In this document: positions 1 to 17,343 of the stretch, piece after piece | How positions within the stretch are numbered: the stretch's first letter is position 1 | Layout: each line of letters opens with the position of its first letter | Assembly (NCBI GenBank): GCA_016281775.1 | Contig: JAEEJH010000091.1 | Span: 1-54,878 of the forward strand | Direction of reading: 5' to 3' | Length of the DNA stretch: 54,878 bases | From: Clostridiales bacterium | GTDB taxonomy: Bacteria > Bacillota > Clostridia > Oscillospirales > CAG-272 | Notes under the pieces: model-generated | The model's database searches: none | What the model was told of the DNA's origin: nothing | The model's input: the letters and a program-made list of their open reading frames with translations, nothing else | Made by a program: the position numbers and the translations under genes

Positions 1-312
1 GAAAGTCCCGTCGCGTACATATACAACACGAGAGAAGAGCTTGAAAAGCTGAATATAGACCCCTTTTCCGTTTCGCGCGGAATGGTTGGCCTTATGGCTG
101 ATATAAAGGGCATAGATATCTGGGTCAATTTCACCGAGGTGGAGGACAAGGTATGGTGCGAGCTTCGCTCAAGCAAATACAACATAAATCCCATAGCGGT
201 AAAGTACGGCGGCGGCGGTCATCAGAAAGCGAGCGGAGCTGACGTAGCCGACTTTGCCGAAGCCATGCTTATGCTCGAAGACCTCAAAAAACTTGCGGAG
301 AGTGCATCATGA
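1..312 (+). CDS. DHH/DHHA1 family phosphoesterase (NrnA-like), C-terminal part, truncated by window edge
   Basis: Frame open from base 1 (ESPVAYIYN...); DHHA1 motif ELRS...IAVKYGGGGHQKASG; stop overlaps next ATG (ATGA). Confidence 0.85.
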   Translation, partial: ESPVAYIYNTREELEKLNIDPFSVSRGMVGLMADIKGIDIWVNFTEVEDKVWCELRSSKYNINPIAVKYGGGGHQKASGADVADFAEAMLMLEDLKKLAESAS

Positions 313-1292
313 ACGAAGAAGTAAAAGAACTTATACTAAAAAAGATCAAAGAATACGAAACGGTCATAATATCGCGCCACAAACGCCCCGACGGCGACGC
401 CGTCGGTTCGACAAAGGGTCTGCACCGGATGATAAGCGCGGCTTATCCCGACAAGCGCGTGTTTCTCGACAATTCAGATTACGCGGCTTATCTTGCGTTT
501 CTCGGCGACGAGGGCGAAAAACCGACCGACGAAGACTACGAAAACGCTCTTGTGATAGTTATAGACACCGGCACCGCCGACAGGATATCGAATCCGCGTT
601 ATGACAAAGGCGCGGAGCTTGTAAAGATTGATCACCACATCGTCGACAGTTCTTACGGCGATATCTGCTGGATCGAGGAGGAACGGTCGTCAGCCTGCGA
701 AATGATCGTCGGTCTGTCCGACAAAACGCTCGCCGGCGCTCTGCCGCTCGATAAAACGTCCGCTTCTTTTCTCTACACCGGCATGATCACCGATTCCGGC
801 AGGTTCCGTTACCGCGGCACGTCGCCCGATACTATGCGCGCCGCCGCTTTGCTGATGGAGCAGGATATAGATACGGAGAGCATTTACGCGAATCTCTATA
901 TGGACGGGTTTGACGCGGTGAAATTCCGCGCCTCGGCGGTCAGAATGATCAAAATGACCGAAAACGGCGTAGCGTATATAAAGATCACGAAGAAATTCCG
1001 CGAGAAGCACTCGCTTACGCTTGAAGAGGCGAGCAATATCGTCTCGGTAATGGATTCGATAAAGGGCAGTCTTATATGGCTTGCATTCATCGAAAACGAC
1101 GATAAGAGTATAAGAGTGCGTCTGCGCTCGCGTTTCGTCGAGATACAGCCGGTCGCGGCAAGATATCACGGCGGCGGTCACGCTTGCTCGAGCGGCGCGA
1201 CGGTTTACAGCGTAAAGGAGCAGAAGGCGCTTTTGAAAGAAGCGGACGAACTGCTCGGCAGATACAAAAAAGAAAACACGGGCTGGATCTGA
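309..1292 (+). CDS. nrnA: DHH family bifunctional oligoribonuclease/PAP phosphatase (NrnA-like)
   Basis: Motifs HKRPDGDAVGS, IDT, IDHH, TDSGRF, RLRS, GGGH; 327 aa. Confidence 0.9.
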   Translation: MNEEVKELILKKIKEYETVIISRHKRPDGDAVGSTKGLHRMISAAYPDKRVFLDNSDYAAYLAFLGDEGEKPTDEDYENALVIVIDTGTADRISNPRYDKGAELVKIDHHIVDSSYGDICWIEEERSSACEMIVGLSDKTLAGALPLDKTSASFLYTGMITDSGRFRYRGTSPDTMRAAALLMEQDIDTESIYANLYMDGFDAVKFRASAVRMIKMTENGVAYIKITKKFREKHSLTLEEASNIVSVMDSIKGSLIWLAFIENDDKSIRVRLRSRFVEIQPVAARYHGGGHACSSGATVYSVKEQKALLKEADELLGRYKKENTGWI

Positions 1293-1294
1293 CG

Positions 1295-2017
1295 ATGAGG
1301 ATACTGATAACAAACGACGACGGGATAGAGAGTCCGGGTATCGCTTATCTTTCGCTTTGGGCGAAAAAACTCGGCGAGGTGACCGTAGTCGCGCCGAAAT
1401 ATGAGCAGAGCGCCTGCTCGCATACGATCGTTTTGCGCAGACCTTTCGAAGTTAAAGAAAGCCGGCTGTTCGAAGACTCCGGCATAAAAGCTTATTCGAT
1501 AGACGCGTCGCCCGCCGACTGCGTGCGTTTCTCCGCCGAGCAGTACGGCGGATTCGATCTGCTTCTCTCCGGCATAAATCACGGGCTGAACATGGGTTAC
1601 GATATATCGTATTCCGGCACGTGCTCGGCGGCGTTCGAAGGCTCGTTTGCGAACATACCGTCCGTCGCGTTTTCAACCGAGCGCGGATGCCTGGAGCAGG
1701 CCGCGGCGGAACTTGACAGAGTTTGGGATTTCATAACCGAAAACAGACTTCTCGAATACGACTGCGTTTTCAACGTCAATATCGTACCGGATATGAAAGG
1801 GATAAGGATAACAAGACAGGGAGCGACGTTTTACCGCGACAGCTTTGAGCCGTGCGGTACGGATACTTACAAAGCCTCCACCTATATAGCTCACCACTTC
1901 GACGAAGGCGGCGACCCGTATCTCGACATAAACGCGGTGCACGACGGCTACTGCTCAATAACTCCGTTACGGACGAACCGGACGGATACCGTAATTTTCA
2001 AAAAGCTGAAAAGATAA
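1295..2017 (+). CDS. surE: 5'/3'-nucleotidase SurE
   Basis: Start moved to ATG 1295 (MRILITNDDGI); motifs VVAP..EQSA.SH, PADCV, SGINHGLNMG, YSGT. Confidence 0.92.
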   Translation: MRILITNDDGIESPGIAYLSLWAKKLGEVTVVAPKYEQSACSHTIVLRRPFEVKESRLFEDSGIKAYSIDASPADCVRFSAEQYGGFDLLLSGINHGLNMGYDISYSGTCSAAFEGSFANIPSVAFSTERGCLEQAAAELDRVWDFITENRLLEYDCVFNVNIVPDMKGIRITRQGATFYRDSFEPCGTDTYKASTYIAHHFDEGGDPYLDINAVHDGYCSITPLRTNRTDTVIFKKLKR

Positions 2018-2053
2018 AAAACGTTCCCGGAAATCATTCCGGGAACGCTTTTA
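2016..2053. terminator. Bidirectional intrinsic terminator between convergent surE and the OB-repeat gene
   Basis: cgttcccggaa-atca-ttccgggaacg stem flanked by A-run and T-run. Confidence 0.85.
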
Positions 2054-2063
2054 TTATGCCGTT

Positions 2064-3707
2064 TTATCTCTTCTTGCCGATAACTATCGCGCAGCCGAGA
2101 GCGGCTATCGCGGTGATCGCCGCTACAGCTACGGCGGCGTCGGAAGTATCGGTATTGTCGGGCTTGTGGTTAGGACCGTATTCTATCGCATCAAGCGTGC
2201 AGGGCTGAGCGAATTCGTAAGTGCCTCTGTGATTCTTCATCGGGCCGGTCACGGTGATCGTATCGCCGATCGCTATCTTGTCGGCGCCTTCGCCTGCAAG
2301 ACGGTAGCAGGTCACAGGTTTGTCTTCGAAACCTTCGACCGTCATCACCACGGTGATGTTCTGGTACTCTTCGCTGTACGCGGTCGTTATCTCTGTGACC
2401 TTGCCTGTAAGCGTATATTCGCCTTTGAGGAATTTGCCGTCTTCGAGAGCGTACAGAGCGTTGAGTATTTCTTCAACCGTCTCGGGGAGCTGTTCTTCTT
2501 CTTTTTCAACGATGGTGAAAGCGAGAAGTTCGCAGTCCTTATCGAACTCGACGACCGTTTCGGTGTATCTCTTCAGTTTGCCGGATACGGTGATTATATC
2601 CTTTTCGGCTATCTTGTCTACGCCGTCGACGCCTGCGCCGTTTTTAAGGCGGAAGCACTGGATCGGATAGTCTTCAAGACCTTCGACGACTATCGTTACG
2701 GTGACGTTGCCGAACTGGGAGTTGTAAGGCGTATCGACGCTGATTATCGTACCGGTGAGCTCGTACGTGCCGTCAAGCGCTTTGCCGACTTCAAGATCGT
2801 ACGCGGCTTTGACTATCTTTTCGGGAGTGTCGAGCACGGGCTGTTCGGGCTCGGTGGCTTTGGGCGTTCTCGCCTCAAGCGTGCAGCCTCTGTCAAATTC
2901 AAACGTAGAGGTGTCTTTGTTCGAGTTATAGAAGTGCTTGAGTACGCCTTTGACCGTGATCGTGTCGCCTTCGGCTATGCTCGCGCATTCGGCGCAGGCT
3001 TCGCTGTTGGTCAGATAGTAGCACTGGATCGGTTTGTCGGTCATCTCGCCGACGACTATCGTGACGGTCATATTCTGTTTGGATTCGTTCCAGGAGTAGT
3101 TGATCTCGGTGACGACGCCGGTAAGGCTGTACGGACCGCCGGGAAGGGTCGCGTTCTTTTCAAGAGCGTAAAGCGCATTTACTATCTCTTCGGGAGTCGT
3201 GTAGGTCGGAGTTTCGGGCTGTTCGGGTTCTCCGGGCTGCGAGCCGGTCGAATCGAGCGTGACCTTCATTTCCACTATACGCGTCTGACCGCTGTCGGGG
3301 TTAGTGAATTTGACCGAGTTTGCGCTGCCGGTCCACGTTCCCGCGGCGTCGCTGACCGCGAAGCTGCCGGAGTTGACGCCGTATTCGAGGGCGTAGCTTG
3401 CAGCCGTGAACGTAAATGCGACAGACAAGATCGCGCTGTCGCTCGATACGGTGAACTCGTTGTTCTTATAGATCCTGGCGGCTTTGCCGTTGTCGTAGTA
3501 CATAGGCGAGTTGCTCGTATTGCTGCCTGAGCCGAACGTGATCTTCACGCCGTCTTTGACAAGCTCGGTCAGAGCTGCTTTGTCTTCGATGCCCATATCG
3601 GCAAACGTGAACGTGACGGTCTTCGTCTCACCGTCGGCGTGAGCCGCGACGAAGATCGCCGAAACGGCCATCACCGCGATGAGAATAAATGCAAGTGCTT
3701 TTTTCAT
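2064..3707 (-). CDS. Secreted, probably wall-anchored protein with three OB-fold-like repeats
   Basis: Signal peptide (MKKALAFILIA...AHA); N-terminal beta-rich domain; PE linker; three ~100-aa repeats (EEI.NALY.L...LTG...N.TV.IVV...PIQC.R...GD.ITV.G...EF...CTL); C-terminus NTDTSD + hydrophobic stretch + KKR resembles a sortase sorting signal. Confidence 0.8.
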   Translation of the reverse strand: MKKALAFILIAVMAVSAIFVAAHADGETKTVTFTFADMGIEDKAALTELVKDGVKITFGSGSNTSNSPMYYDNGKAARIYKNNEFTVSSDSAILSVAFTFTAASYALEYGVNSGSFAVSDAAGTWTGSANSVKFTNPDSGQTRIVEMKVTLDSTGSQPGEPEQPETPTYTTPEEIVNALYALEKNATLPGGPYSLTGVVTEINYSWNESKQNMTVTIVVGEMTDKPIQCYYLTNSEACAECASIAEGDTITVKGVLKHFYNSNKDTSTFEFDRGCTLEARTPKATEPEQPVLDTPEKIVKAAYDLEVGKALDGTYELTGTIISVDTPYNSQFGNVTVTIVVEGLEDYPIQCFRLKNGAGVDGVDKIAEKDIITVSGKLKRYTETVVEFDKDCELLAFTIVEKEEEQLPETVEEILNALYALEDGKFLKGEYTLTGKVTEITTAYSEEYQNITVVMTVEGFEDKPVTCYRLAGEGADKIAIGDTITVTGPMKNHRGTYEFAQPCTLDAIEYGPNHKPDNTDTSDAAVAVAAITAIAALGCAIVIGKKR

Positions 3708-3745
3708 TTTATGGCTCCTTTATGTAAATTATATTTTAACCATTA

Positions 3746-6172
3746 TCATTTGATCAGCGTCGCGCCGGTCGTGAATTCATATACCGACTCGTTTCTGTTC
3801 GCGTTGTAGTAGTGGATCAGGTTGCCTTCTATCGTGACCGTATCGTCGACCTTGATATTTTCAACGCCTTCGCCTTTGATCCTGTAAACGGTGACCGGAT
3901 AATCCGCAAGGCCTTCGACGACTATAACGAACGATATGTTTTTGTGTTCTTCGGTATACGCTTCGGTGATGCTCGTGACTTTGCCGGTGAGCCTGTACGG
4001 GTTGCCGGGCAGCGAATCGCCTTTATCGAGCGCGTAAAGCGCTTTGACGATCTCTTCGGGCGTGTTGTATTTGATATTCGTGCCTTCGGCTACGAAGTCG
4101 ATGCTCTTGAGAGTGCAGCCCGCGTCGAATTCGACGGTGCCGTCGGTGTATTTCTTTATCTTGCCTTCAACGGTTATTTTGTCGCCGACTTTGACCTTGT
4201 CAGCGCCTTCGCCTTTCATGCGGAAGCACTGGATCGGATACTGGTCAAGACCGTCGCAGACGATCGTAACGGTGACGTTCTGATAACCTGCGTCATACGG
4301 TGTGTTGACTCTCGTTATCGTACCGGAGAGCGTGTGCGTGCCGTCAAGAGCCTTGCCCTTGTCGAGCGCATAAGCGGCTTTGAGGAGTTTTTCAACGGAA
4401 TCGTCCTTCGGGGGTTCGGTCTCGGCCGGCTCTGTTTCGGCGGGCTGAGTTTCCGCTTCGCCCGAACCGTTTTCTATCTTGTCGAGCGTGCAGTTCGCGT
4501 CGAATTCGAACGTATCGTTATATCTCTTCAAAACGCCGGTAACGGTGATGACGTCGCCGACTTTGAGGTCCGGCGCGCCTTCGCCTTTCATGCGGAAGCA
4601 CTGTACGGGCTTGTCAGCCATATCGCCGACCACTATCGTAACGGTTATATTGCCGTACTGTTCGCTGTATGCGGTGTCGATCTTTGTGATCTTGCCTTTG
4701 AGAGTGAACGTGCCGGGCAGAGCCTTGCCCTTTTCGAGTTTGTAAAGCGCGTTGACTATTTCTTCCTGCGTGAGGTTCGCGGGCATCACGACGACCTTGT
4801 ATTCTTTAGTCTCGGAGAGACTGCCGCAGGTCGCGGTGAGCGTGAGCTTCAGTTCTTCGATGCCGGAGCCGAGCGTGATCACGAGCTTGCCGTTTTCGAT
4901 CTTGGCGGAATCCGCGGGATCAAGCTTCCAGTCGAATTTGACGGCGTCGTAAGTCGCGCCCTGCGCGGGCAGATCGACCGTCAGATCGGCGTTGGTGTTT
5001 TCGGGGATGCTGACAGCCGCTATTTCGTTTGCTAATTTTTCTTCATCCGAAATGTCTGTCGAGGTCACGGTTATACCGCCGACGCACGGATAGATCTGCG
5101 GTTCGTTGTTCCATGCCATCGGACCTTCTATATCGACCGTATAGCCTACGCCGAGTTTGGAGTATTCTTCTTTGAGTTCCGCAACCGTAAACGTGCAGGA
5201 CGTGGAGAGGAAGAGGCTGAAATCAACGCCGTTCTTGGAGACGGTCACGGTGACTCTGCCGTCGCCGGCTTCTTCAAACGTTTCAAAAGTATTCTTTACC
5301 CATTCGATCTTCGTTATTTTTGCGCCTGTCAGCGTGCAGATAACGCCCTGATACTGATCGAGCGCGCTTACGAGATTCGTTTCGGGTTTGAACATATCGT
5401 CAAGCGGTATCTTCTTTACTTCGGCTTTTTTGATCTCGCTGCCGTCGTATACGAGCGAATACGTGCATCCGGCGCCCATTTCACGGAAGCCGTTGTATAT
5501 CGACGTCGTACCGCTTATGACTATGACGTTGCCTATCGCGAGTTTGGTATCGTATTCTTCCTGCGAGTCGCATTTGAGACGGTATCCGAAATATCCGTGT
5601 TCTCCGTCAAGATCCTGGATGAATACGCCGGTATTCTTGTAATCGGGAGCGTAAGGATATTTTGCCACGATGACGCCTCTTACGTTCATCGCCGCGTCTT
5701 TGGTATTTTCAGCCCAGTACGCCCAGTTCGCTATTTCGTACTGTTTGATGACGTACTTGAATGTGATCTCTTTTGAGGTGAGTCCGTTGCCGACTACGTT
5801 GCCTTTTACGGTAAATTCCGTATCCTTATCGGCGTACGGGTCGACTTTGATCAGGACTTTGTTTTCTTCACTGCTGTCGGCGATCGAAGCGAGGCCGTTG
5901 CCGCCTTCGACCGTCCAGTTCACGTCAAGATCGAAACCTTCCTGATCGATGAGCTTTGACGGGAGCGTGAAGGACGAAGAAACCTGGTTATTCTCGCCGG
6001 GTTTGTTGAAGGTGTAGACCATGTCCGCCGCGTTGTCTAACAGCTCCTGCGAGATCTCCGCCTGTTTGGTCGTTTCAGGCGTAGTTTCAACGGGTTTGCC
6101 GCCGTTGCAGGACGTCAGCAAAAGCGCGGAAGCCATAAGCAGCACGAGCAGTACCGATAGTGCTTTTCTCAT
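3746..6172 (-). CDS. Lipoprotein with Ig-like and OB-fold domains plus three OB-fold-like repeats
   Basis: Lipobox LLTSC; segment VRGVIVAK...GVFIQD...IGNVIVISG...YNG resembles YhcR-type OB folds; Ig-like segments; three C-terminal repeats homologous to those of 2064..3707. Confidence 0.8.
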   Translation of the reverse strand: MRKALSVLLVLLMASALLLTSCNGGKPVETTPETTKQAEISQELLDNAADMVYTFNKPGENNQVSSSFTLPSKLIDQEGFDLDVNWTVEGGNGLASIADSSEENKVLIKVDPYADKDTEFTVKGNVVGNGLTSKEITFKYVIKQYEIANWAYWAENTKDAAMNVRGVIVAKYPYAPDYKNTGVFIQDLDGEHGYFGYRLKCDSQEEYDTKLAIGNVIVISGTTSIYNGFREMGAGCTYSLVYDGSEIKKAEVKKIPLDDMFKPETNLVSALDQYQGVICTLTGAKITKIEWVKNTFETFEEAGDGRVTVTVSKNGVDFSLFLSTSCTFTVAELKEEYSKLGVGYTVDIEGPMAWNNEPQIYPCVGGITVTSTDISDEEKLANEIAAVSIPENTNADLTVDLPAQGATYDAVKFDWKLDPADSAKIENGKLVITLGSGIEELKLTLTATCGSLSETKEYKVVVMPANLTQEEIVNALYKLEKGKALPGTFTLKGKITKIDTAYSEQYGNITVTIVVGDMADKPVQCFRMKGEGAPDLKVGDVITVTGVLKRYNDTFEFDANCTLDKIENGSGEAETQPAETEPAETEPPKDDSVEKLLKAAYALDKGKALDGTHTLSGTITRVNTPYDAGYQNVTVTIVCDGLDQYPIQCFRMKGEGADKVKVGDKITVEGKIKKYTDGTVEFDAGCTLKSIDFVAEGTNIKYNTPEEIVKALYALDKGDSLPGNPYRLTGKVTSITEAYTEEHKNISFVIVVEGLADYPVTVYRIKGEGVENIKVDDTVTIEGNLIHYYNANRNESVYEFTTGATLIK

Positions 6173-6197: not shown

Positions 6198-7541
6198 TCA
6201 ATTAAGAATTTCAGCGTCGGAAAGAGTAAAGAGTTTGAGCTGCGCGCTGCCCTCGTAATACTCGATTATACCTGTGACGTTCATCTTTTTGTTCCGGAAA
6301 TAATCCTCCGTCACGGTTTCGCCGTTGCTCGTGAGCACGGCGGTCCTTACAACGACCGTTTTCTGATTCGCGTCCGAACAGGTGAGAGTCATTGCGCCTT
6401 TGCTCGAAGAGGTCTCGTTGGTCGTCGTATAAACGCTCTTTACCGTGATATTCTCGATCTTTACGAGCGTGTTTTCGAGCGTGGGATCGTTGTTCAGCTG
6501 ATCCGCGCCAATGACGGTCGGCTCGATCTTTACGTCTTTTTCAATTATCTTGACGTCGTCATCGGACGGATTGATAAGCGAGAAAGACAGACCTGATACC
6601 TGAAAACCGAAGTTCTCGTTGTTGTCGGCGGTGCCGGCTATCTGCAGTTTGTACCCGACGACGAGGAATTTCGGAGCGAGCGACGCGTAGCCGCCGTAAA
6701 CGTAAACGCCGTAATACTGCTGAGTGTCTTCGTCGAACGACTGTACGTAGATGCCCTCGCCGCTCTTCTTCGTAACGACGCCTTCAAAACGCACCTTTAT
6801 GCCCGAATAAGACTCTTTGTTGAGCACGAGACTTTTTATAGAGAGATCGACCGATTCGCCGTAATAGAACAGCGGGTCCTTTTTGCCTGAATACAGATTC
6901 AGTCTGTTCGATCTCGCGCTGGTGAGCGCTTCGGTCGCTACGGTGCCGTAACGGTTGGACGAAGTGCTTTTGCCCATTGCGAGCCCTTCGGAGAGTATTT
7001 CTATGTTCAGGTTTCTCCACACGTTACTGCCCTCGTTGCGGTACCATACCCACGCGAGATAGCGATCGCCGGTGGAGTCGAAGTTCGCTTCGCCCTCGGT
7101 ATCGCTTTCGAGAGCGATCTCGGCGGCGTTATTCAGCTTCGTTTTGGTATATACCGACGCGGGTTTGCCCCAGGGCTCGACCTTGCCGGTGGATTCCGGC
7201 GTATCTATCGCCAGAAATCTGATCTTCAATATCTCTGTCTTGCTGTTGTTCCAGAAATGAGCCGTATCGCCGTCGATGCAGAGTTCTACCGTCACCCTGC
7301 CCCGCCCCGTCGCGTTAAAATCGGAATCGAGGTCAGCGGCGTTGAAGTTCACTCTCGTCGCGTAATCGGGCAGCGACGGGTCGCGCTCGTATTCCCAGTT
7401 TCCGTCGACCTGCTCGGTCTGCCGGTCCGTGACCGCCTCCGTCGTTACGTCCGCCGCCGGTTTTTTGACGCAGGACGCAAACACGGCGATAACGGTCAGC
7501 AGAGCGAGGATCAGAGATAATATTTTTAAATAATATTTCAT
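6198..7541 (-). CDS. Thermonuclease (staphylococcal nuclease family) lipoprotein with C-terminal OB-fold-like domains
   Basis: Lipobox VFASC; SNase catalytic motifs IDGDT, IRFLAIDTPE, EPWGKPAS, DRYLAWVW, N.EILSEGLA; C-terminal VRFEGVVT...GIYVQ...GVYVY OB-like region. Confidence 0.9.
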   Translation of the reverse strand: MKYYLKILSLILALLTVIAVFASCVKKPAADVTTEAVTDRQTEQVDGNWEYERDPSLPDYATRVNFNAADLDSDFNATGRGRVTVELCIDGDTAHFWNNSKTEILKIRFLAIDTPESTGKVEPWGKPASVYTKTKLNNAAEIALESDTEGEANFDSTGDRYLAWVWYRNEGSNVWRNLNIEILSEGLAMGKSTSSNRYGTVATEALTSARSNRLNLYSGKKDPLFYYGESVDLSIKSLVLNKESYSGIKVRFEGVVTKKSGEGIYVQSFDEDTQQYYGVYVYGGYASLAPKFLVVGYKLQIAGTADNNENFGFQVSGLSFSLINPSDDDVKIIEKDVKIEPTVIGADQLNNDPTLENTLVKIENITVKSVYTTTNETSSSKGAMTLTCSDANQKTVVVRTAVLTSNGETVTEDYFRNKKMNVTGIIEYYEGSAQLKLFTLSDAEILN

Positions 7542-9021: not shown

Positions 9022-9951
9022 TTAACCTTTGATACCGCTTCTCGATACGCCGCGCATTATGTACTTGCGCAGGAACACGAAGACGAGGAACAGCGGGATC
9101 GATACTATGAATACCGCCGCCATCTGCGCCGGGAAGTTCGTGTCGCCCGCTTCGGTAACGAAGCTGGCGCCGCGCAGACCGTTCGTAATCAGCTTGTGCG
9201 CGTCGTCGTTTGCAACGAGGCGGGGCCAGATATACGCGTTCCAAGAACCCATCATCTTGAGTATCGTTATGGTGATTATGGTCGAGACTGAAAGCGGAAG
9301 CATTACCTTCCACAGATATTTGAAGTCGCTCGTACCGTCGACCTTCGCGGCGAGGTACAGTTCGTTCGGTATCTGCATAAACGTCTGACGCAAGAGGTAA
9401 ATGTAATAGACCGATACGAGCATCGGCACGATAAGTACCGCGAACGTATTCGTTATATCAAGCCAGCTTATCGACTCTTCAAGAAACGGCAGTCTGCCCG
9501 ATACGGTGAGGTAGTTCGTTATCGTGTAAAGCTCGCCCGGTACCATCATAGTTGCCATGAGAGCGCCGAACACTATGCCCTTGCCTTTGAAATTGAGTCT
9601 GGCGAACGCAAACGCCGAAAGCACCGTTACGACGAGCGAAAGCACCGTTGAAACCGCGCCGACGTAGAGCGTGTGCAAAAACAGATCGAGCAGTTTGGCT
9701 TTTTCAAACGCCATGACGAAATTTTCGAAAACTATCTTTTTAGGCCAGAGCGTAGGTACGTTCAGCCTGTATTCCTCCATCGTTTTAAGCGACGAAATGA
9801 TCATCCAGTAAAACGGGAATATCATCATGACCGCCATGAGCGTGAGGAATATGTATATGACCGTCAGTCTTATGATATTTGCGGTCTTCTGATTGCGCAT
9901 CGAGGCGGCTACGTCGATGTCTTTTATGACAAATTCTTTTCTATCAGCCAT
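9022..9951 (-). CDS. ABC transporter permease (MalG/UgpE-like)
   Basis: Start at 9951 (GAGGTG RBS); PFYWMIISSLK, AFAFARLNFKG, EAA-like loop ELYLAAKVDG, WNAYIWP. Confidence 0.92.
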   Translation of the reverse strand: MADRKEFVIKDIDVAASMRNQKTANIIRLTVIYIFLTLMAVMMIFPFYWMIISSLKTMEEYRLNVPTLWPKKIVFENFVMAFEKAKLLDLFLHTLYVGAVSTVLSLVVTVLSAFAFARLNFKGKGIVFGALMATMMVPGELYTITNYLTVSGRLPFLEESISWLDITNTFAVLIVPMLVSVYYIYLLRQTFMQIPNELYLAAKVDGTSDFKYLWKVMLPLSVSTIITITILKMMGSWNAYIWPRLVANDDAHKLITNGLRGASFVTEAGDTNFPAQMAAVFIVSIPLFLVFVFLRKYIMRGVSRSGIKG

Positions 9952-9959: not shown

Positions 9960-10889
9960 TCAATAATGCACTTTCTTACTGCTCACGTAACCGTTTATCG
10001 CCGTTACGACGAGGATTATCGCGAACAGTATCAGAGACGCCGCCGAGGCGTTGCCGAGATTGCTCTTCGGCAGCATGTTGTAAACGTAACCGACTATCGT
10101 GTTCATCTGCCCGGAAGAACCGGCGGGGCCCATCGTTTCGCCGAATATACCTACGATACTCGAATACTCTTTGAAGCCGCCGATGAACGAGGTGATTATG
10201 ACGTAGGCGAGCATCGGGGAGACGAGCGGCACGGTTATGCGGAAGAACGTGCGCGCTTTTGAGGTCGCGTCGATCTTCGCGGCTTCGTAATACTGCTTGT
10301 TCACGTTCTGCAGACCGCCCATGAGAACGAGTATCTTGAACGGCAGGGCGTGCCAGATTATGTAGGTACAGACGACGAACATATTAGCGCCCCAGGTCGA
10401 GCCGTTGTTGACGAAGTTCACCGGCGATATGCCGAATATTCCGATTATATTGTTGATTATACCCTGCGTTTCGATCAGGTCGCCGACGCCGACGCGCGTG
10501 AACATCGCGTTGAAGACCATGCCTATCGCTATGGAGTTGGTGACGTACGGCAGGAAGAACACCGTCTGATATACTTTCTGCAAAGGTTTTATCGAATTGA
10601 GCGCGACGGCTATAAGCAGCGCGAGCGCCGTGGATATCGGGACCGTTATCACGCAAAGGAGCACAGTATTTTTGAGGTACTGTTTGAAGTCGACGTTGCC
10701 AATGACCGTTTTGAAGTTCTCTATACCGAACTCGAACGTCTCGCCGCCGACTATCGCCAGACCGTTGTAACCGTTGAGAAACGCCATGCGGAACGTGTTT
10801 ATGAGCGGATAAAACGAGAATATCAGCAGAAGCACGAGCGCCGGCGAGAGGTACAGCCAGGCTTTATAGTTGTTCTTTTTGTCCGTCAT
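9960..10889 (-). CDS. ABC transporter permease (MalF/UgpA-like)
   Basis: YLSPAL, FFLPYVT, EAA motif YYEAAKIDA...FFRITVPL. Confidence 0.92.
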   Translation of the reverse strand: MTDKKNNYKAWLYLSPALVLLLIFSFYPLINTFRMAFLNGYNGLAIVGGETFEFGIENFKTVIGNVDFKQYLKNTVLLCVITVPISTALALLIAVALNSIKPLQKVYQTVFFLPYVTNSIAIGMVFNAMFTRVGVGDLIETQGIINNIIGIFGISPVNFVNNGSTWGANMFVVCTYIIWHALPFKILVLMGGLQNVNKQYYEAAKIDATSKARTFFRITVPLVSPMLAYVIITSFIGGFKEYSSIVGIFGETMGPAGSSGQMNTIVGYVYNMLPKSNLGNASAASLILFAIILVVTAINGYVSSKKVHY

Positions 10890-10893: not shown

Positions 10894-11997
10894 TTACCCC
10901 TCTACGTTTATGCGCAGCTCGGTCTCGGCTTCGAAGACGAACACCTTGTTTTTCTTAATATTGAAGCGTACTCTGCCGGTCGCGTCGTGCTTGATGTCGA
11001 TACCGGAATCGACTATCGCGCGTACTGTCTCTTTCTGACATTTTTCATTCTCGAGTATGACCGAGCAGTCGCGGCCCATGACTTCTATGTTGCGCAGGAT
11101 GCCGGAGAACGCTCCGTCCTCGCACGGTATGAAGCCTTCTGGTCTGATAGCGACGTGAACGGGCCTGTCCTGCTGCCCGGGCAACGCCATTATCTCCTCG
11201 TCGCCGATCTTGAGCATGCCGTCTTCGATCTTGCCGTCGAAGACGTTTATAGGCGGCGTGCCGAGGAATTTTGCGACGAAGAGGTTGCACGGATCGTCGT
11301 AAACGTTCTGCGGCTTGCCGATCTGCTGAACGACGCCTTCCTTCATAACGACGATGATGTCGGAGATGCTCATCGCCTCTTCCTGGTCGTGGGTGACGAA
11401 TACGGTGGTTACGCCGGTCTCGCGCTGGATGCGGCGTATCTCTTCACGCGTCTGCAGGCGCAGACGTGCGTCGAGGTTCGAAAGCGGTTCGTCGAGCAGA
11501 AGCACTCTCGGCTCTTTCACGAGCGCGCGCGCTATCGCGACGCGCTGCTGCTGACCGCCGGAGAGTTCGCTCGGTTTTCTGTCCATCAGCTCGTCGATCT
11601 GTACGAGCTTAGCCGCGGCGACCGCTTTTTCAAGCATCTCCTGTTTAGACATTTTCTGCTCGCCCTTCAGGTTCTGCAGCGGGAACAGGATGTTCTGTTT
11701 GACCGTCAGATGAGGGTACAGAGCGTAGTTCTGGAAAACAAGTCCGACGCCGCGATGCTCCGGCTCAAGATGCGTGACTTCTTTTTCCCCGAAAAAGATC
11801 TTGCCTTTTGTAGGCTTCTGCAGACCGCAGATCATATAAAGGGTCGTGCTTTTGCCGCAGCCCGAAGGCCCGAGCAGACCGACGAGCTTGCCGTCGGGTA
11901 TCTCGAAATTGAGTCCGTCGACCGCTATGACCTCTTCTTTGATCTTCTTGTTTCTGTTCGGGAACGCCTTCGTCACGTTTTGAAGTACAATTTTCAT
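10894..11997 (-). CDS. ABC transporter ATP-binding protein (MalK/UgpC-like)
   Basis: Walker A GPSGCGKS, VFQNYALYPH, LSGGQQQR, LLLDEP, VTHDQEEA. Confidence 0.95.
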   Translation of the reverse strand: MKIVLQNVTKAFPNRNKKIKEEVIAVDGLNFEIPDGKLVGLLGPSGCGKSTTLYMICGLQKPTKGKIFFGEKEVTHLEPEHRGVGLVFQNYALYPHLTVKQNILFPLQNLKGEQKMSKQEMLEKAVAAAKLVQIDELMDRKPSELSGGQQQRVAIARALVKEPRVLLLDEPLSNLDARLRLQTREEIRRIQRETGVTTVFVTHDQEEAMSISDIIVVMKEGVVQQIGKPQNVYDDPCNLFVAKFLGTPPINVFDGKIEDGMLKIGDEEIMALPGQQDRPVHVAIRPEGFIPCEDGAFSGILRNIEVMGRDCSVILENEKCQKETVRAIVDSGIDIKHDATGRVRFNIKKNKVFVFEAETELRINVEG

Positions 11998-12020
11998 AAC
12001 GTCTCCTGTATATTTGAAAT

Positions 12021-12779
12021 TTAATAGGTTTCTTCTTCTCTTTTCAGCTGCTTCTGCTTTTCGATATACGCGTCACGCTCTTCGGCCGTATCGAATATCA
12101 TCTGGCTGCCCCAGTCGACGGCGACCGTATCGGCTATAACGTCGTGCAGGAATCTGCCCGGACCGAGTTTCACGAGGGAGAACACCTCGCCCGCGGCGAA
12201 AACCGCTATCAGCACCCAGCCGAACAGCCCGGTAGCGCCCGTTATGACGGAGAGAAACGTCAGTATCGGCAGAATGAATTCCATAACTCCTTTGCCGATG
12301 ACGTTGCGCACGAAGATTATCGGGGCCGACGCCCGCGTGAAGCCGGTGCGCATCACGCCGAGACCGAACAGCCGCTTGCCGAGCGATCTGCCGTCTTTCA
12401 ATATCACCGGTATGATAAACTCAAGAAGCAGAGTCGATCCGAAAACGCCGCCGGAGAGTATGACGAACGTCAGTATCAGATACGTTCTCATCGCCTCGTT
12501 CGCTTCTTCGTCGGCGTTCATGGCGTCGACGGCTTCTTTATAATGAGTTTTTTCTTCGTCGGTCATTTTGGAATACGCTTCTTCGTCGGTCGAGTAATCG
12601 ACGCCGTACCGCTCTTCGTATTCGGCACGGACAGCGTTATATCTGTTCAGATATCCGTCGGTATCCAGAACGCTTGCAAACAAAAGATACAGACCGACCG
12701 TCAGCATTGCGGCGACGACGAAATCGGCAAGGAAAGCGAACATCCTTTTCGCGTACGGGGCTTTCTGCAGATCGATCAT
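12021..12779 (-). CDS. RDD family membrane protein
   Basis: Start at 12779 (GGAGG RBS); KRMFAFLADF, GRSLGKRLFGL.V, R.LHDVIADT.V motifs. Confidence 0.85.
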   Translation of the reverse strand: MIDLQKAPYAKRMFAFLADFVVAAMLTVGLYLLFASVLDTDGYLNRYNAVRAEYEERYGVDYSTDEEAYSKMTDEEKTHYKEAVDAMNADEEANEAMRTYLILTFVILSGGVFGSTLLLEFIIPVILKDGRSLGKRLFGLGVMRTGFTRASAPIIFVRNVIGKGVMEFILPILTFLSVITGATGLFGWVLIAVFAAGEVFSLVKLGPGRFLHDVIADTVAVDWGSQMIFDTAEERDAYIEKQKQLKREEETY

Positions 12780-12792
12780 TTCAGCCCTCCGC

Positions 12793-12866: not shown

Positions 12867-12895
12867 CTTTTCGCACGTGTATTATATTTACTGTA

Positions 12896-12924
12896 ATGAT
12901 AACATACTCTCAAAATCATGTCAA
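12896..12924 (-). promoter_or_regulatory. Sigma-A promoter for the RDD/ABC/nuclease operon
   Basis: TTGACA-17 nt-TATCAT with extended TG. Confidence 0.65.
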
Positions 12925-13006
12925 TACTTTTTTTGTGAATTCGTCAAAATTCTCGAAACTTCGTCAATATTATTTTCCGTATTTCCCGTTTTTTTTCGCC
13001 GCGCTA

Positions 13007-13035
13007 TTGCATACGGCGAAAAAATATGATAGAAT
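13007..13035 (+). promoter_or_regulatory. Sigma-A promoter for the deo operon
   Basis: TTGCAT-17 nt-TAGAAT with extended TG. Confidence 0.6.
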
Positions 13036-13059
13036 AAGAAAAAAACAGGAGATTTGAAT

Positions 13060-13728
13060 ATGCAGATCAAGGATATTTTATCAAAAGTCGATCATACCCT
13101 TCTCGCGCAGAACGCGACGTGGGAGCAGATCAGGCAGATATGCGACGACGGAATGAAATACGGTACGGCCTCGGTTTGTATCCCGGCTTCTTACGTCAAA
13201 GCCGCTAAGGATTACGTCGGCGATAAACTCGCCGTATGCACTGTCATAGGATTTCCGAACGGCTATTCGACCACGGCGGTCAAGGTCTTTGAGACCGCCG
13301 ACGCGCTTCAGAACGGCGCCGACGAGATCGATATGGTCATCAACGTCGGCTGGCTGAAAGACAAAAAATACGACGCGCTGCTCGGTGAGATAAGAGCGAT
13401 AAAAGCCGTATGCGGCGATAAGATCCTCAAAGTCATAATAGAGACGTGCCTGCTCACAGACGAAGAAAAAATTAAAATGTGCGAGATCGTCTCCGAATCG
13501 GGCGCGGATTACATCAAGACCTCGACCGGCTTTTCAAAAGGCGGAGCGACTAAAGAAGACGTCGCGCTCTTCGCCGCTCACGTTGCTCCTCATCTGAAGA
13601 TCAAAGCCGCCGGCGGAATCTCGTCGCTGCAGGACGCGGAAGATTTCATTAATCTCGGCGCTATGCGTCTCGGCACGAGCAGAATAGTCAAAATAGTCAA
13701 AAATATGCCCGAAGACTCGGGTTATTGA
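13060..13728 (+). CDS. deoC: Deoxyribose-phosphate aldolase
   Basis: [44 protein letters not shown]; AGGAG RBS before ATG 13060. Confidence 0.97.
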
Positions 13729-13740
13729 TAGGAGAAAAAT

Positions 13741-14472
13741 ATGAATTATCCGACTCCTCACATAAACGCGGCCCCTGAGGATTTCGCCGATACCGTGCTT
13801 ATGCCGGGCGATCCTCTGCGCTCGAAATTCATAGCGGAAAATTTCCTGACCGGCGCGAAGCTCGTCAACAACGTAAGAGGCATACAGGGTTATACAGGTA
13901 AATATAACGGCGTGCCGGTATCGGTCATGGCGAGCGGTATGGGTATGCCTTCGATAGGTATTTATTCTTACGAGCTGTTCAATTTCTTCGGCGTGTCGAA
14001 CGTCATAAGAGTCGGCTCCGCCGGAGCGATGACGGCCGACGTGAAGGTGCGCGAGATAGTAATGGCCGAAGGCGCCTGCACCGATTCGAATTACGCGGCG
14101 CAGTTCCGTCTGCCGGGCGCGTACGCTCCGATCGCCGATTTCGGTCTGCTCTCCAAAGCGGTAAAATTCGCCGACGAAATGAAGCTTTCTTACCACGTCG
14201 GCAACGTTCTGTCGTCCGACCGCTTTTACGGCGACGACGGCGATCTGCCGGAAAATATGAGATCGGCGGCGCTGTGGAGAAAAATGGGCGTTTTAGCGGT
14301 CGAGATGGAGAGCGCGGCGCTTTATATGAACGCGGCGCGCGCCGGCAAGCACGCTCTCGGCGTTTTCACGATATCCGACAGCCTCGTCACGGGCGAATCG
14401 ACGAGCGCCGAAGAACGCCAGAACACCTTCACCGATATGATGGAGCTCGCGCTCCGCGTTGCAACGACGTGA
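13741..14472 (+). CDS. deoD: Purine nucleoside phosphorylase (DeoD type)
   Basis: PTPHINA, MPGDPLR, GMGMPS, IRVGSAG, VEMES. Confidence 0.97.
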   Translation: MNYPTPHINAAPEDFADTVLMPGDPLRSKFIAENFLTGAKLVNNVRGIQGYTGKYNGVPVSVMASGMGMPSIGIYSYELFNFFGVSNVIRVGSAGAMTADVKVREIVMAEGACTDSNYAAQFRLPGAYAPIADFGLLSKAVKFADEMKLSYHVGNVLSSDRFYGDDGDLPENMRSAALWRKMGVLAVEMESAALYMNAARAGKHALGVFTISDSLVTGESTSAEERQNTFTDMMELALRVATT

Positions 14473-16040
14473 TGAAGCGCGTATTTCTGATAGTTCTCGA
14501 CAGTTTCGGCATAGGCGCGGAGCCGGATGCCGACAGATTCGGCGACGTCGGGACAAATACCCTCCGCTCGATATCACGTTCGGATCATTTCAGGATCGAT
14601 AACTTAAAAAAAGCGGGGCTATGCGATATTGAAGGCGTCGATTTTCTGTCCGGCTTTGCCGGTCATTACGGCGCGGTCGGCAGACTGCGCGAAGCGTCGG
14701 CGGGCAAAGACACGACGATCGGGCACTGGGAAATAGCGGGACTTATCTCGCCTTCACCGATGCCGACGTATCCGCACGGTTTTCCCGACGACGTGATCGC
14801 GGCGTTTTCGGCATCCGTCGGCCGCGGAGTGCTCTGCAACCTGCCGTATTCGGGCACAAAGGTCATTGAAGAATACGGCGAAGAGCACATGAAGACGGGC
14901 AAGCTGATCGTCTACACGAGCGCGGACAGCGTATTTCAGATCGCGGCGCATGAAGATATCGTCCCCGTTGAAGAGCTTTATGATATTTGCCGCAAAGCGA
15001 GAAGCATACTTAAAGGCAGACACGCCGTCGGCAGAGTTATCGCGAGACCTTTCAAAGGCGGACCGGGCGGGTTTTACCGTACGGAGAACCGCCGCGATTT
15101 TTCGCTCGAACCGACCGGTACGACGCTTCTCGACGAGTTGAAAAAAGCCGGGCGCGACGTGATCTCGGTCGGCAAGATACGCGATATCTTCGCCTCGCGC
15201 GGCGTGACCGAAGCGGTCGTCACTCACAACAATACAGAGGGAATGGCGGCGGCGCTCGAATTGCAGAAACGCGATTTCAACGGTCTGTGCTTTGTGAACC
15301 TCGTGGATTTCGATATGCTATACGGACACCGCAACGACGCAGACGGCTATGCGAAAGCCATAGCCGCATTCGATGAATGGCTGCCCGGTTTCGTATCCGG
15401 CATGAGAGAAGGCGACGCGCTCATAATCACCGCCGATCACGGCTGCGATCCCGGCGATATAAGCACCGATCACACGAGAGAGTACGTTCCCATGATAGCC
15501 GTCGGCAAGAGTATAAAACCCGTTAATTTGGGCACGAGAAGCACTTTTGCAGACGTTGGAGCGACCGTCGGCGAAATGCTCGGAGTTAAATGCGATATAA
15601 GCGGAAAGAGCTTTTATATGGAAATAACAAGCGAAAATAAAGTATACGCCGATCTTATGAACAGAGCCGAAGCGGCGAGAAACAATTCCTATTCTCCCTA
15701 TTCCGGCTTCTCGGTCGGGGCGGCTCTGCTCTGCTCCGACGGCAAGATTTACGAAGGCTGCAACATCGAAAACGCGTCGTTTTCGCCCACGATCTGCGCC
15801 GAGCGGACCGCGATATTCAAGGCGGTCTCGGAAGGCGAACGTGAATTCGAGGCGATAGCGATATCCGGCGGCAGACACGGCGAGATATCCGACACGTGTT
15901 CGCCGTGCGGAGTATGCAGACAGGTGATGACCGAATTCTGCGGCGCCGGTTTCAAGATCGTTTTAAGAACGGAAAACGGGATAAAAATACTCACGCTCAA
16001 AGAACTTATGCCGCTCTCGTTTACGAAAGGAGAACTCTGA
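14472..16040 (+). CDS. deoB: Phosphopentomutase-cytidine deaminase fusion (DeoB::Cdd)
   Basis: TGATG-coupled start MKRVFLIVLDSFGIG; DeoB motifs GKDTTIGHWE, YTSADS, DFDMLYGHRND, TADHG; reads in-frame into Cdd motifs YSPYS.F.VGAAL, NIENAS, CAER, PCGVCRQ. Confidence 0.92.
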   Translation: MKRVFLIVLDSFGIGAEPDADRFGDVGTNTLRSISRSDHFRIDNLKKAGLCDIEGVDFLSGFAGHYGAVGRLREASAGKDTTIGHWEIAGLISPSPMPTYPHGFPDDVIAAFSASVGRGVLCNLPYSGTKVIEEYGEEHMKTGKLIVYTSADSVFQIAAHEDIVPVEELYDICRKARSILKGRHAVGRVIARPFKGGPGGFYRTENRRDFSLEPTGTTLLDELKKAGRDVISVGKIRDIFASRGVTEAVVTHNNTEGMAAALELQKRDFNGLCFVNLVDFDMLYGHRNDADGYAKAIAAFDEWLPGFVSGMREGDALIITADHGCDPGDISTDHTREYVPMIAVGKSIKPVNLGTRSTFADVGATVGEMLGVKCDISGKSFYMEITSENKVYADLMNRAEAARNNSYSPYSGFSVGAALLCSDGKIYEGCNIENASFSPTICAERTAIFKAVSEGEREFEAIAISGGRHGEISDTCSPCGVCRQVMTEFCGAGFKIVLRTENGIKILTLKELMPLSFTKGEL

Positions 16041-16041
16041 A

Positions 16042-17343
16042 ATGCGGATGTACGATATCATACAGAAAAAACGCGAAGGACTTGAGCTTTCGGTCGACGA
16101 GATAAAGTTTTTCGTTTCGGGATATACGAAAGGCGAGATACCCGACTATCAGGCGTCCGCTCTCTGTATGGCGATATGCTTCAACGGCATGACCGACGCC
16201 GAGACCGCCGCGCTCACCGAGGCGATGATGAGATCGGGCGACGTTATCGATCTTTCGCGTTTCGGAAATCTGTCGGCAGACAAGCACAGCACCGGCGGAG
16301 TGGGAGACAAAACTTCTCTGATCGTCGCGCCGACGGCGGCGGCGCTCGGAGTGAAAATGGCTAAAATGTCGGGCAGAGGTCTCGGGCACACCGGCGGCAC
16401 CGTCGACAAGCTCGAATCGATACCGGGGTTCAAAACGACGTTGTCGGGCGAAGAATTCATGGATACTGCCGATAAAGTCGGCATATGTCTTGTCGGGCAG
16501 AGCGCGCATCTTGCGCCCGCCGACAAAAAACTTTACGCGCTGCGCGACGTTACCGCGACGGTTGACAGCATACCGCTGATCGCCTCGTCCATAATGAGCA
16601 AAAAGCTCGCCGCGGGCGCGCATTCGATAGTGCTTGACGTCAAATGCGGCAGCGGCGCGTTCATGAAGACGGAAAAGGACGCGAAAAAGCTCGCCGAGAC
16701 GATGATCGCGGCCGGCAAGGCGCACGGCAGAAACGTACGCGCTCTGATAACGAATATGGATATACCGCTCGGTACGGCGGTCGGCAACGCGCTCGAGGTC
16801 GCCGAGGCGGTAAGCGTGCTCAAAGGCGAAAAACGCGGCGATATTTACGATATCTGCGTCGAGCTCGCTTCAAACATAGTTTCGATGGTAAAAGAGATAA
16901 CGACCGGCGAAGCCCGCGCGCTCGTCAAAGACTGCGTCGGCTCTGGCAGAGCTTTTGAAAAAATGAAAGAGTGGATAGGCGCGCAGGGCGGCGACGTATC
17001 GTATATCGAAGACACGTCGAAGCTGTTCGGCAGGTATTGCAAACGCGAGATCAAAGCCGCGCAAAGCGGATATATCAGCGCGATGAATACGGAACAGATC
17101 GGCATCACCGCTTCTCTGCTCGGCGCCGGACGCATCAGGAAAGAAGATACGATAGATATGTCCGCCGGGCTTGAAGTGTTCAAAAAGACCGGCGACAGAG
17201 TCGGCGCCGGCGACGTGATAGCCGTTATGTACTCTTCGGACGCGTCAAGATTCGATAACGCGGAAAAAACTTATTTATCCGCGCTCACATTTTCCGATCT
17301 GCCCGTCGAAAAACCCGGGCTGATATTCGGTGTGATCTCGTAA
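16042..17343 (+). CDS. pdp: Pyrimidine-nucleoside phosphorylase
   Basis: DKHSTGGVGDK, SGRGLGHTGGT, SIMSKKLA, LDVKCGSGAFM. Confidence 0.96.
   Translation: MRMYDIIQKKREGLELSVDEIKFFVSGYTKGEIPDYQASALCMAICFNGMTDAETAALTEAMMRSGDVIDLSRFGNLSADKHSTGGVGDKTSLIVAPTAAALGVKMAKMSGRGLGHTGGTVDKLESIPGFKTTLSGEEFMDTADKVGICLVGQSAHLAPADKKLYALRDVTATVDSIPLIASSIMSKKLAAGAHSIVLDVKCGSGAFMKTEKDAKKLAETMIAAGKAHGRNVRALITNMDIPLGTAVGNALEVAEAVSVLKGEKRGDIYDICVELASNIVSMVKEITTGEARALVKDCVGSGRAFEKMKEWIGAQGGDVSYIEDTSKLFGRYCKREIKAAQSGYISAMNTEQIGITASLLGAGRIRKEDTIDMSAGLEVFKKTGDRVGAGDVIAVMYSSDASRFDNAEKTYLSALTFSDLPVEKPGLIFGVIS

Follow-up and report, generated by a model that had tools for sequence, protein, structure and literature searches.

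A putative nucleic-acid scavenging locus built around an ABC importer in a Clostridiales genome

Gut Bacteroidales possess ddbABCDEF, a DNA-utilization locus organised like a polysaccharide utilization locus (PUL) (Sharan et al., PNAS 2025; PMC12478041). Its products include three nucleases, lipid-anchored at the surface, the TonB-dependent transporter DdbC, and DdbD, a putative DNA-binding protein of the DUF5689 family that resembles the double-stranded DNA (dsDNA)-binding HIN domain of p202; Firmicutes go unmentioned in the main text of that paper (PMC12478041). In mycoplasmas, surface lipoproteins of the SNase family (Mhp379, MAG_5040, Mpn133, MHO_0730) are described beside operons for ATP-binding cassette (ABC) transporters and have a proposed, unproven role in nucleotide feeding, and the DNA-binding lipoprotein MslA is proposed to deliver substrate to the ABC importer (PMC4045577, PMC9740415). 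Two Izemoplasmatales carry clusters named 'DNA-degradation locus' (Xianfuyuplasma zrk13, PMC8397711) and 'nucleic acid-degradation locus' (Hujiaoplasma zrk29, PMC10470597). Both are described as combining a thermonuclease or ribonuclease with phosphohydrolases or NrnA and with ABC transporters, as up-regulated on DNA or RNA, and as belonging to organisms that grow on nucleic acids (PMC8397711, PMC10470597). Here we describe a locus in contig JAEEJH010000091.1 of a Clostridiales bacterium (GTDB CAG-272; assembly GCA_016281775.1), analysed over its 54,878 nucleotides (hereafter the window), which probably serves a Gram-positive gut anaerobe in scavenging nucleic acids and has an ABC importer at its centre.

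Sixteen genes, arranged in three units, occupy the initial 18.4 kb of the window, according to Pfam and NCBIfam. The original prediction, made from the sequence, had placed 15 contiguous genes here; all of them were recovered by these models, together with a co-oriented 16th gene. The central unit, on the minus strand, encodes in this order an RDD protein, an ABC ATPase, two permeases, a substrate-binding protein (SBP) lipoprotein, an SNase lipoprotein, an 808-aa lipoprotein and a 547-aa protein. Four products of this 8-gene operon are exported: the SBP, the SNase and two surface proteins with OB repeats (three lipoboxes, and one signal peptide with a membrane anchor). The core order recurs across genomes labelled with three phyla.

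SNase-family enzymes release short 3'-phosphorylated products, NrnA-like enzymes trim short oligonucleotides, SurE removes phosphates and the deo enzymes degrade nucleosides. In the proposed mechanism, the OB-repeat proteins and the double-barrel modules described below would hold DNA or RNA at the cell surface, where a Ca2+-type SNase would cut it to 3'-phosphorylated mono-, di- and short oligonucleotides. The SBP would hand these fragments to the permeases, two NrnA-like DHH enzymes would trim them to mononucleotides in the cytoplasm, and SurE would there take off 5' or 3' phosphates. In this genome, deoC-deoD-deoB::cdd-pdp would finally turn the nucleosides into bases, glyceraldehyde-3-phosphate and acetaldehyde. 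A phosphorylated short oligonucleotide appears more likely than a nucleoside as the imported species, because the enzymes for trimming and dephosphorylation lack signal peptides and accompany the operon. More tentatively, and with slightly less than even weight, we propose that the operon is a dedicated importer of short phosphorylated oligonucleotides and a Gram-positive counterpart of DdbCD, in which the double-barrel module, not annotated before, is the nucleic-acid receptor feeding a dinucleotide-type SBP and RDD is a new obligatory membrane component, and that the cassette has moved laterally among gut anaerobes labelled as three phyla.

Conservation and spread of the cassette

An alignment of 14 SBP homologues (A1) was scanned against one genome per species. 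At least 595 stretches matched, of which 581 were confirmed, and the best 80 were kept with 10-kb flanks and searched by tblastn with 16 window proteins; all counts of gene order given here refer to these best 80 of at least 581 loci. The order RDD-ATPase-permease-permease-SBP-SNase recurs in the 80 related loci, more than expected by chance. SNase follows directly after the SBP in 76 of the 77 eligible loci (at least 1.5 kb of downstream sequence); in the sole exception (L012) a second SBP takes that place, after which the locus ends. RDD is found upstream in 60 of 61 eligible loci, and a match to an OB protein downstream in 55 of 66. Most loci with sufficient downstream sequence have an open reading frame (ORF) on the plus strand that begins within about 50 nt of the SNase end and mostly encodes 430-1556 aa. 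Full 10-kb flanks are present in 35 loci; of these, 24 have at least two DHH genes and 19 have SurE. From these counts, the conserved unit consists of RDD, the ABC system, SBP, SNase and an OB protein, and is often accompanied, in either orientation, by the DHH-DHH-SurE set. The expectation in the original prediction that homologous ABC cassettes are co-located with nuclease and DHH genes is thereby borne out.

According to their labels, 66 of the 80 loci are Clostridia-type, seven Spirochaetota, five Bacilli, one Mollicutes and one Alloprevotella, with SBPs 51%-78% identical to that of the window. Most record titles refer to rumen, gut or faecal metagenome-assembled genomes (MAGs). In an SBP tree (quick search, midpoint root), the Spirochaetota sequences are dispersed among Clostridia, one of them (L079) nested with an SH-aLRT support of 99, and two 'Bacilli' sequences nest within the window's own clade. 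The occurrence of the SBP orthologue is patchy among congeners (6 of 11, at genome completeness of 72-95%). In an even sample of the class it was detected in two of 399 scored genomes (E<=1e-100), the window's own included, and the locus is therefore rare. Scattered labels in the tree, together with this patchy and rare occurrence, suggest lateral spread within gut habitats. The same operon is carried by the MAG labelled Mollicutes (L072).

A complete copy of the operon is also present on a 244-kb contig of a record labelled Alloprevotella sp. (Bacteroidota; L053). This copy may represent a mis-binned contig or a real transfer.

Substrate-binding protein, nuclease and OB-repeat proteins

All four parts of a CUT1-type importer are present with scores above the Pfam cut-offs (Table 1). 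The AlphaFold2 model of the SBP (pLDDT 85.3) was searched against PDB by Foldseek. Among the PDB matches listed, ranks up to 24 are all chains of a dinucleotide-binding protein of Thermus thermophilus (best E 2.1e-24, TMt 0.83), followed by UgpB at rank 26. The A1 profile gives the same order against PDB, with 80 bits (1e-21) for the T. thermophilus protein and 61 bits (6e-16) for UgpB. The structure title describes a dinucleotide-binding ABC protein endogenously bound to uridylyl-3'-5'-phospho-guanosine (PDB 7C0F and a mutant series); the study behind 7C0F is reportedly that of Chandravanshi et al. 2021. The window SBP is considerably longer (480 aa against 395-406, i.e. about 75-85 additional residues) and 20-21% identical to the Thermus protein, which is nevertheless its closest solved relative by profile and by fold. 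On this comparison, the question raised with the original prediction, whether the SBP binds nucleotides or sugars, would be answered in favour of nucleotides.

The titles of the PDB series name eight mutated ligand-site residues (Y56, F79, N81, S127, Y224, T240, Y246 and Q274); the mutant chains T240A and N81A give an offset of +2 between chain and paper numbering. All but Y224, seven in total, could be aligned with the window SBP. Identical residues are Y56 (Y84 in the window SBP), S127 (S169), Y246 (Y313) and Q274 (Q346), conservative replacements are F79 (Y107) and T240 (S307), and only N81 (D109) is changed, so that six of the seven aligned positions are kept, either identically or conservatively. 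Six of the seven mapped window residues are invariant in the 14 sequences of A1, with the exception of Y313. Several of these ligand-site residues are, as described, also common to UgpB-type binders (PMC12718374). The Thermus protein, the glycerophosphocholine binder of Mycobacterium tuberculosis and UgpB are described as one phosphate-recognising branch of CUT1 proteins, apart from the sugar binders, and UgpB of Escherichia coli clamps the glycerol moiety between two tryptophans, W169 and W172 (PMC12718374). Hidden Markov model alignments of the SBP to 4aq4 and 6x84 end before the region of this clamp. By profile and fold, the SBP is placed in the phosphodiester-binding branch of the CUT1 family. 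The mapped residues favour a phosphodiester or nucleotide as ligand, and do not discriminate between a dinucleotide and a glycerophosphodiester. A weak N-terminal match to the NCBIfam 'P68 family surface lipoprotein' (NF045826) reaches 49.6 bits against a cut-off of 200. As the original prediction had anticipated, automatic annotation mislabels such proteins: in the JGI annotation, a homologue with 68% identity appears as 'multiple sugar transport system substrate-binding protein', and further homologues are entered only as 'extracellular solute-binding protein'.

The RDD gene had originally been started at a GTG at 12863; its likely start is 12779, which gives 252 aa, as in the relatives. In an alignment of 24 RDD sequences (A4), K11, R12, D19 and further columns are invariant. 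A prediction of the complex of RDD with the permeases scored 0.00, which weighs neither for nor against binding. That RDD is an accessory membrane subunit is a guess.

The SNase lipoprotein consists of a thermonuclease domain (residues ~76-220) followed by a C-terminal double beta-barrel module (~232-441). Equivalents of Staphylococcus aureus D21, R35, D40, T41, E43 and R87 are all kept in the window domain. All 78 SNase homologues pass the Pfam SNase model, and D92, R108, E116 and R160 are invariant in 78/78; at the position of S. aureus D40, most relatives have N (consensus). No SNase match other than this lipoprotein occurs in the window's genome. Its C-terminus (232-441) and residues 147-366 of the 808-aa lipoprotein are one module (hhalign 97.5%, E 6e-12), which profile-profile comparison also recovers in a third lipoprotein, P0121.

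With a length of 232 aa, P0121 comprises the double-barrel module once and alone, and belongs to a second ABC system of the same genome (contig G000:C29; L082, 7366-12628, minus strand), which comprises an ATPase, two permeases, a 534-aa SBP and, directly after it, P0121. This second SBP is 33% identical to that of the window, and the system is without SNase and without RDD. The order ATPase, two permeases, SBP, lipoprotein is kept in all seven loci examined (L082-L087, and L031 at 15854-21194); in L031, the second system abuts the DHH pair of the main locus. With the module present on the main locus and P0121 beside the paralogous SBP, the double-barrel module is thus a recurrent partner of this ABC family. 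P0121 has a large family (7725 of 8000 scored candidates at E<=0.001), whose annotation is 'hypothetical'; one member comes from the cultured Aristaeella lactis. A reading of P0121 as a short OB repeat was rejected (hhalign probability 8%).

The double-barrel module is suggestive of a relationship to DUF5689 (PF18942), the DdbD family of Bacteroidales. The window SNase C-terminus scores 26.9 bits, under the 28.6-bit cut-off, and at E<=0.01 the model matches 12 of 78 SNase-family and two of 20 808-aa-family members (best 8.5e-9). An Atlas lead with a high score also points to this relation.

The AlphaFold2 model of the 808-aa lipoprotein (pLDDT 86.3) consists of an Ig-like domain, the double beta-barrel (~147-371), a further Ig-like domain and three OB repeats. 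In its family of 20 members, aBig_2 is detected in 14 and PF01336 in 11. Over 384 aa, the 547-aa protein shares 46% identity with residues 438-806 of the 808-aa protein; with PF01336 it scores 25.7 bits, just under the 27-bit cut-off. Both proteins carry three C-terminal repeats of about 105 aa, mutually 49-57% identical (alignment A2). Foldseek matches of the 808-aa model are tandem-OB DNA binders, viz. CST, the p204 HIN domain with dsDNA, RPA, RADX and TEBP. The 808-aa protein also matches weakly the N-terminal part of the NCBIfam ExeM/NucH model (E 3e-4, 19.7 bits). From fold and genomic context, we infer that the OB-repeat proteins may bind and capture nucleic acids.

A Cys pair, in QCF and GCTL motifs, occurs in five of the six OB repeats (window 3749-4777 and 2172-3200, minus strand), an uncommon feature in proteins that a strict anaerobe exports. 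The pair could form a disulfide or a metal site.

Gene layout, cytoplasmic enzymes and neighbouring genes

The coordinates of all features are given in Table 1. Intergenic gaps within the minus-strand operon are at most 38 nt. The best promoter-like site of the scan lies upstream of RDD, and the strongest hairpin, with T-rich tails after both stems, lies beyond the last gene of the operon. The three transcription units of the original prediction agree with this layout. The site and the hairpin are consistent with an operon and are no proof of one.

Table 1. Genes and signals in the first 18.4 kb of the window
Feature	Position	Strand	Evidence
DHHA1 C-terminal fragment of the first DHH-family (NrnA-like) protein, cut by the contig end	1..312	+	Pfam DHHA1 36.7 bits
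Second DHH/DHHA1 protein, NrnA-like	309..1292	+	Pfam DHH 57.7 bits, DHHA1 42.2 bits
SurE 5'/3'-nucleotidase	1295..2017	+	Pfam SurE 153.8 bits; TIGR00087 139.1 bits (cut-off 135.1)
Bidirectional terminator-like hairpin between the convergent SurE and 547-aa genes	2017..2052	both	16-pair stem on minus, 11-pair stem on plus
547-aa surface protein	2064..3707	-	Signal peptide, N-terminal beta domain, three OB repeats, C-terminal membrane anchor
808-aa lipoprotein, lipobox LTSC	3746..6172	-	PF01336 45.4 bits (cut-off 27)
SNase lipoprotein, lipobox FASC	6198..7541	-	PF00565 40.5 bits (cut-off 21)
Substrate-binding lipoprotein (SBP), lipobox LSAC	7545..8987	-	SBP_bac_8 97 bits
ABC permease, UgpE/MalG-like	9022..9951	-	BPD_transp_1 54.4 bits; NCBIfam UgpE 96.5 bits, below cut-off
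ABC permease, UgpA/MalF-like	9960..10889	-	BPD_transp_1 68.5 bits; NCBIfam
ABC ATPase, UgpC/MalK-like	10894..11997	-	ABC_tran 131.3 bits; NCBIfam UgpC subfamily 350 bits (cut-off 432)
RDD-family membrane protein, first operon gene	12021..12779	-	PF06271 36.6 bits (cut-off 24.1)
Promoter-like site of the 8-gene operon	12896..12924	-	TTGACA-17-TATCAT with TG, 11/12 matches; consensus match only
DeoC, deoxyribose-phosphate aldolase	13062..13728	+	PF01791 65.2 bits; ATG with GGAG upstream
DeoD-type purine nucleoside phosphorylase	13741..14472	+	PNP_UDP_1 134.8 bits
DeoB::Cdd fusion (phosphopentomutase and cytidine deaminase)	14472..16040	+	Metalloenzyme 133 bits and dCMP_cyt_deam_1 69.5 bits, single open frame
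Pdp, pyrimidine-nucleoside phosphorylase	16042..17343	+	Glycos_transf_3, Glycos_trans_3N, PYNP_C
Beta-eliminating lyase family protein, threonine-aldolase-like	17356..18381	+	PF01212 99.5 bits

The fragment at the contig end possesses a GGGH motif at residue 71; in relatives, its full-length paralogue adjoins the second DHH gene. The second DHH protein carries the motifs DGD28, DHH108 and GGGH288 and scores 211 bits with NCBIfam NrnA (NF053633), below the cut-off of 350, and is here named NrnA-like. SurE has its NDDG motif at residue 7. Neither the second DHH protein nor SurE shows an N-terminal hydrophobic segment or signal peptide, and the former is therefore regarded as cytoplasmic.

Domains of DeoC, purine nucleoside phosphorylase, DeoB, Cdd and Pdp all score above the Pfam cut-offs. 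The deoB::cdd fusion is a frame of 522 aa that overlaps the deoD stop codon by one base. Since tblastn recovers DeoB::Cdd as two separate pieces in several related loci, the fusion may not be general. The lyase-family gene starts 12 nt after pdp in the same orientation and is probably co-transcribed with the pdp unit; it has no tblastn match in the 80 loci.

Models of pyrB, pyrC and pyrE give nothing over cut-off in the window's genome (90.7% complete), in which purF is present. A pyrimidine auxotrophy was rejected: pyrB-model matches occur in 11 of 11 congeners, eight of them near 1e-100, and an assembly gap is most likely, the pyr operon probably lying in the unassembled ~9% of the genome. 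Because the genus has pyrB and this genome purF, the locus is not explained by auxotrophy.

An Rfam search of positions 1-20000 (E up to 1) found nothing. A riboswitch or leader was rejected, with no Rfam match and no common conserved leader in the upstream regions of seven close relatives. A direct repeat, TTGACGAA-N14-TTGACGAA, is located at ~12930-12965 (minus strand), immediately upstream of the -35 element of the promoter-like site. Its reading as an operator was rejected, as the repeat is not kept upstream of RDD in related loci.

Beyond this region, the window is ordinary chromosome and has genes for UvrC, Lon, a pyridoxal phosphate (PLP) decarboxylase and a GH123-like protein. Four large ORFs without Pfam match at E<=1e-5 occur amid the housekeeping genes, at 20355-21512 (minus), 23020-24426 (plus), 25419-28019 (minus) and 34426-36255 (minus), with 385, 468, 866 and 609 aa.

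Competing readings and comparison with described systems

Several observations weigh against a nucleic-acid scavenging locus. The 80 loci are the best matches to one query and mutually related, and their counts cannot be read as independent events. At least three deo genes are found in only four of the 35 full-flank loci, or seven of 80 overall; the deo cluster is an occasional neighbour, and the catabolic end lies outside the conserved unit. From the originally claimed complete pathway, the presence of all genes in this genome stands, and a general linkage of the deo genes does not. Promoter and hairpin scans yield totals no higher than in shuffled sequences (15 against a mean of 13.0, and 26 against 24.4). 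The SBP shares little identity with the dinucleotide binder, and UgpB, which binds glycerol phosphate and glycerophosphodiesters, is nearly as close. The link to DUF5689 is weak, given the sub-threshold score in the window and the few family members matched, and PF18942 is carried by none of the 120 best P0121 homologues. Regarding the OB proteins, Foldseek TM-scores of the 808-aa model lie in a low range (0.1-0.4), which is to be expected of a flexible chain with several domains; no solved structure is matched by the OB-repeat profile at E<=1, and single repeats score at most 23 bits, below the PF01336 cut-off. Both proteins are acidic (net charge -44 and -36, pI 4.6 and 4.45), and their invariant repeat residues include no Lys or Arg. 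The SNase domain has a pI of 5.9, and the exported proteins of the operon are all acidic (pI 4.4-4.8). Judged by their composition, the OB proteins and the SNase domain are unlike simple polyanion binders. Of the original claim that the OB-repeat proteins capture nucleic acid, fold and context stand, and the acidity (pI 4.4-4.6) speaks against it. The role of the locus is supported in silico only and is unproven.

An Ugp-type importer might instead scavenge phosphorus as glycerol-3-phosphate or glycerophosphodiesters, not nucleotides, with nuclease, DHH proteins and SurE as other members of a phosphate-acquisition set. All four ABC parts indeed have Ugp proteins as their best named NCBIfam matches, each below cut-off, UgpB structures rank just under the dinucleotide binder, and the phosphate-contacting Tyr and Ser are described as common to the whole UgpB, GPC and U3G branch (PMC12718374). 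The UgpB equivalog (NF008211), however, reaches 76.4 bits against a cut-off of 411 and aligns with the N-terminal part of the SBP only, and the dinucleotide binder outscores UgpB both by profile and by fold. Genes of the pst or pho type or for a glycerophosphodiesterase are absent among the scanned window genes. The adjacency of SBP and SNase (76/77) and the double-barrel lipoprotein beside the paralogous SBP (7/7) moreover tie the importer to nucleic-acid-type modules, and we regard phosphorus scavenging of this kind as unlikely. Quite unlikely, too, is a breakdown of nucleic acid to nucleosides outside the cell, with the ABC system importing these and with DHH and SurE proteins, loosely linked, serving general RNA turnover. 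Nucleosides are taken as the imported form in the Izemoplasmatales models, as far as described (PMC8397711, PMC10470597), and they are the substrates of the deo enzymes; the locus, however, encodes no exported phosphatase or nucleotidase (SurE and the second DHH protein being without signal peptides), its SBP appears to be of the phosphodiester-binding CUT1/UgpB type and matches no nucleoside-binding family in NCBIfam or Pfam, and two DHH genes accompany the operon, in either orientation, in 24 of the 35 full-flank loci.

Surface nuclease and OB proteins could also serve transformation, remodelling of biofilm or extracellular DNA, or escape from host DNA traps, the importer being an unrelated neighbour. 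Mycoplasma SNase lipoproteins are described to degrade neutrophil traps (PMC9740415). A function outside nutrition is nevertheless very unlikely here, given the conserved gene order with its short gaps within a single operon, the cytoplasmic oligonucleotide-trimming enzymes co-located with it and the lack of competence genes in the Pfam scans of the window. Long DNA, furthermore, cannot pass an importer of the CUT1 family.

OB folds, a nuclease and sometimes a nucleotidase are fused into one polypeptide in YhcR of Bacillus subtilis, SpnA of Streptococcus pyogenes and ExeM/NucH. To our knowledge, no dedicated importer belongs to nucleases of this type. The window locus likewise combines OB-fold domains with an extracellular nuclease and, unlike YhcR, SpnA and ExeM, distributes them among three proteins encoded in an ABC operon.

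Gut and rumen contents offer nucleic acids as an abundant nutrient. No description of nucleic-acid uptake by Gram-positive anaerobes was found in the literature searched, nor one of the RDD-ABC-SBP-SNase-OB cassette in Clostridia, Bacilli MAGs or Sphaerochaetaceae. If the proposed role is true, bacteria would import phosphorylated oligonucleotides directly, beyond nucleosides or bases, and proteins now annotated 'sugar transporter' or 'hypothetical protein' would gain a function in at least 581 species-level genomes. One principle would then cover both the DNA-utilization loci of Bacteroidales and the nuclease-ABC operons of mycoplasmas. RDD and the double-barrel module would become candidates for study. 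A dedicated oligonucleotide importer, if true, would moreover provide tractable proteins of non-pathogens for testing the long-standing, unproven nuclease-plus-ABC hypothesis of mycoplasmas.

The original prediction had compared the locus with an SNase-ABC arrangement in Mollicutes, named as MG185-MG190 in Mycoplasma genitalium and as the MslA region in M. gallisepticum. The arrangement itself agrees with published descriptions, i.e. with papers and not with sequence (PMC4045577, PMC9740415). As there, an SNase lipoprotein is encoded beside ABC importer genes; unlike there, where the nuclease is described upstream of the ABC genes, it follows the SBP in the window (PMC4045577, PMC9740415). RDD, OB-repeat arrays and linked deo genes are absent from the mycoplasma descriptions available, by which alone the comparison was made (PMC4045577, PMC9740415). 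With the Izemoplasmatales loci, likewise compared by description only, the window shares a content of nuclease, NrnA-type enzymes and ABC transporter; Izemoplasmatales, however, are marine wall-less Bacilli, and RDD and OB-repeat proteins go unmentioned in the available portions of their descriptions (PMC8397711, PMC10470597). The window locus may share a core with the mycoplasma and Izemoplasma clusters.

The resemblance to ddb lies in a PUL-like logic: a surface nuclease, a non-catalytic, putatively DNA-binding module beside the transporter, and further breakdown. A possible likeness to DdbD lies in the sub-threshold DUF5689 match of the window SNase C-terminus and in the match of the 808-aa model to p204 HIN-dsDNA. 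In contrast to ddb, import is predicted to proceed by a CUT1 ABC system with SBP, with neither an outer membrane nor a TonB-dependent transporter, and RDD, the DHH pair and SurE are additional. The nuclease of the window locus is SNase-type. Families of TonB-dependent receptors are not among the Pfam matches of the locus, which, for want of such a transporter, is not a member of ddb. The originally claimed analogy to a PUL is supported in silico, and as an idea is already in print for Bacteroidales (PMC12478041). Loci of this kind have been published from Bacteroidales, Izemoplasmatales and mycoplasmas; the Gram-positive, ABC-based and RDD-containing form described here did not turn up in the literature searched.

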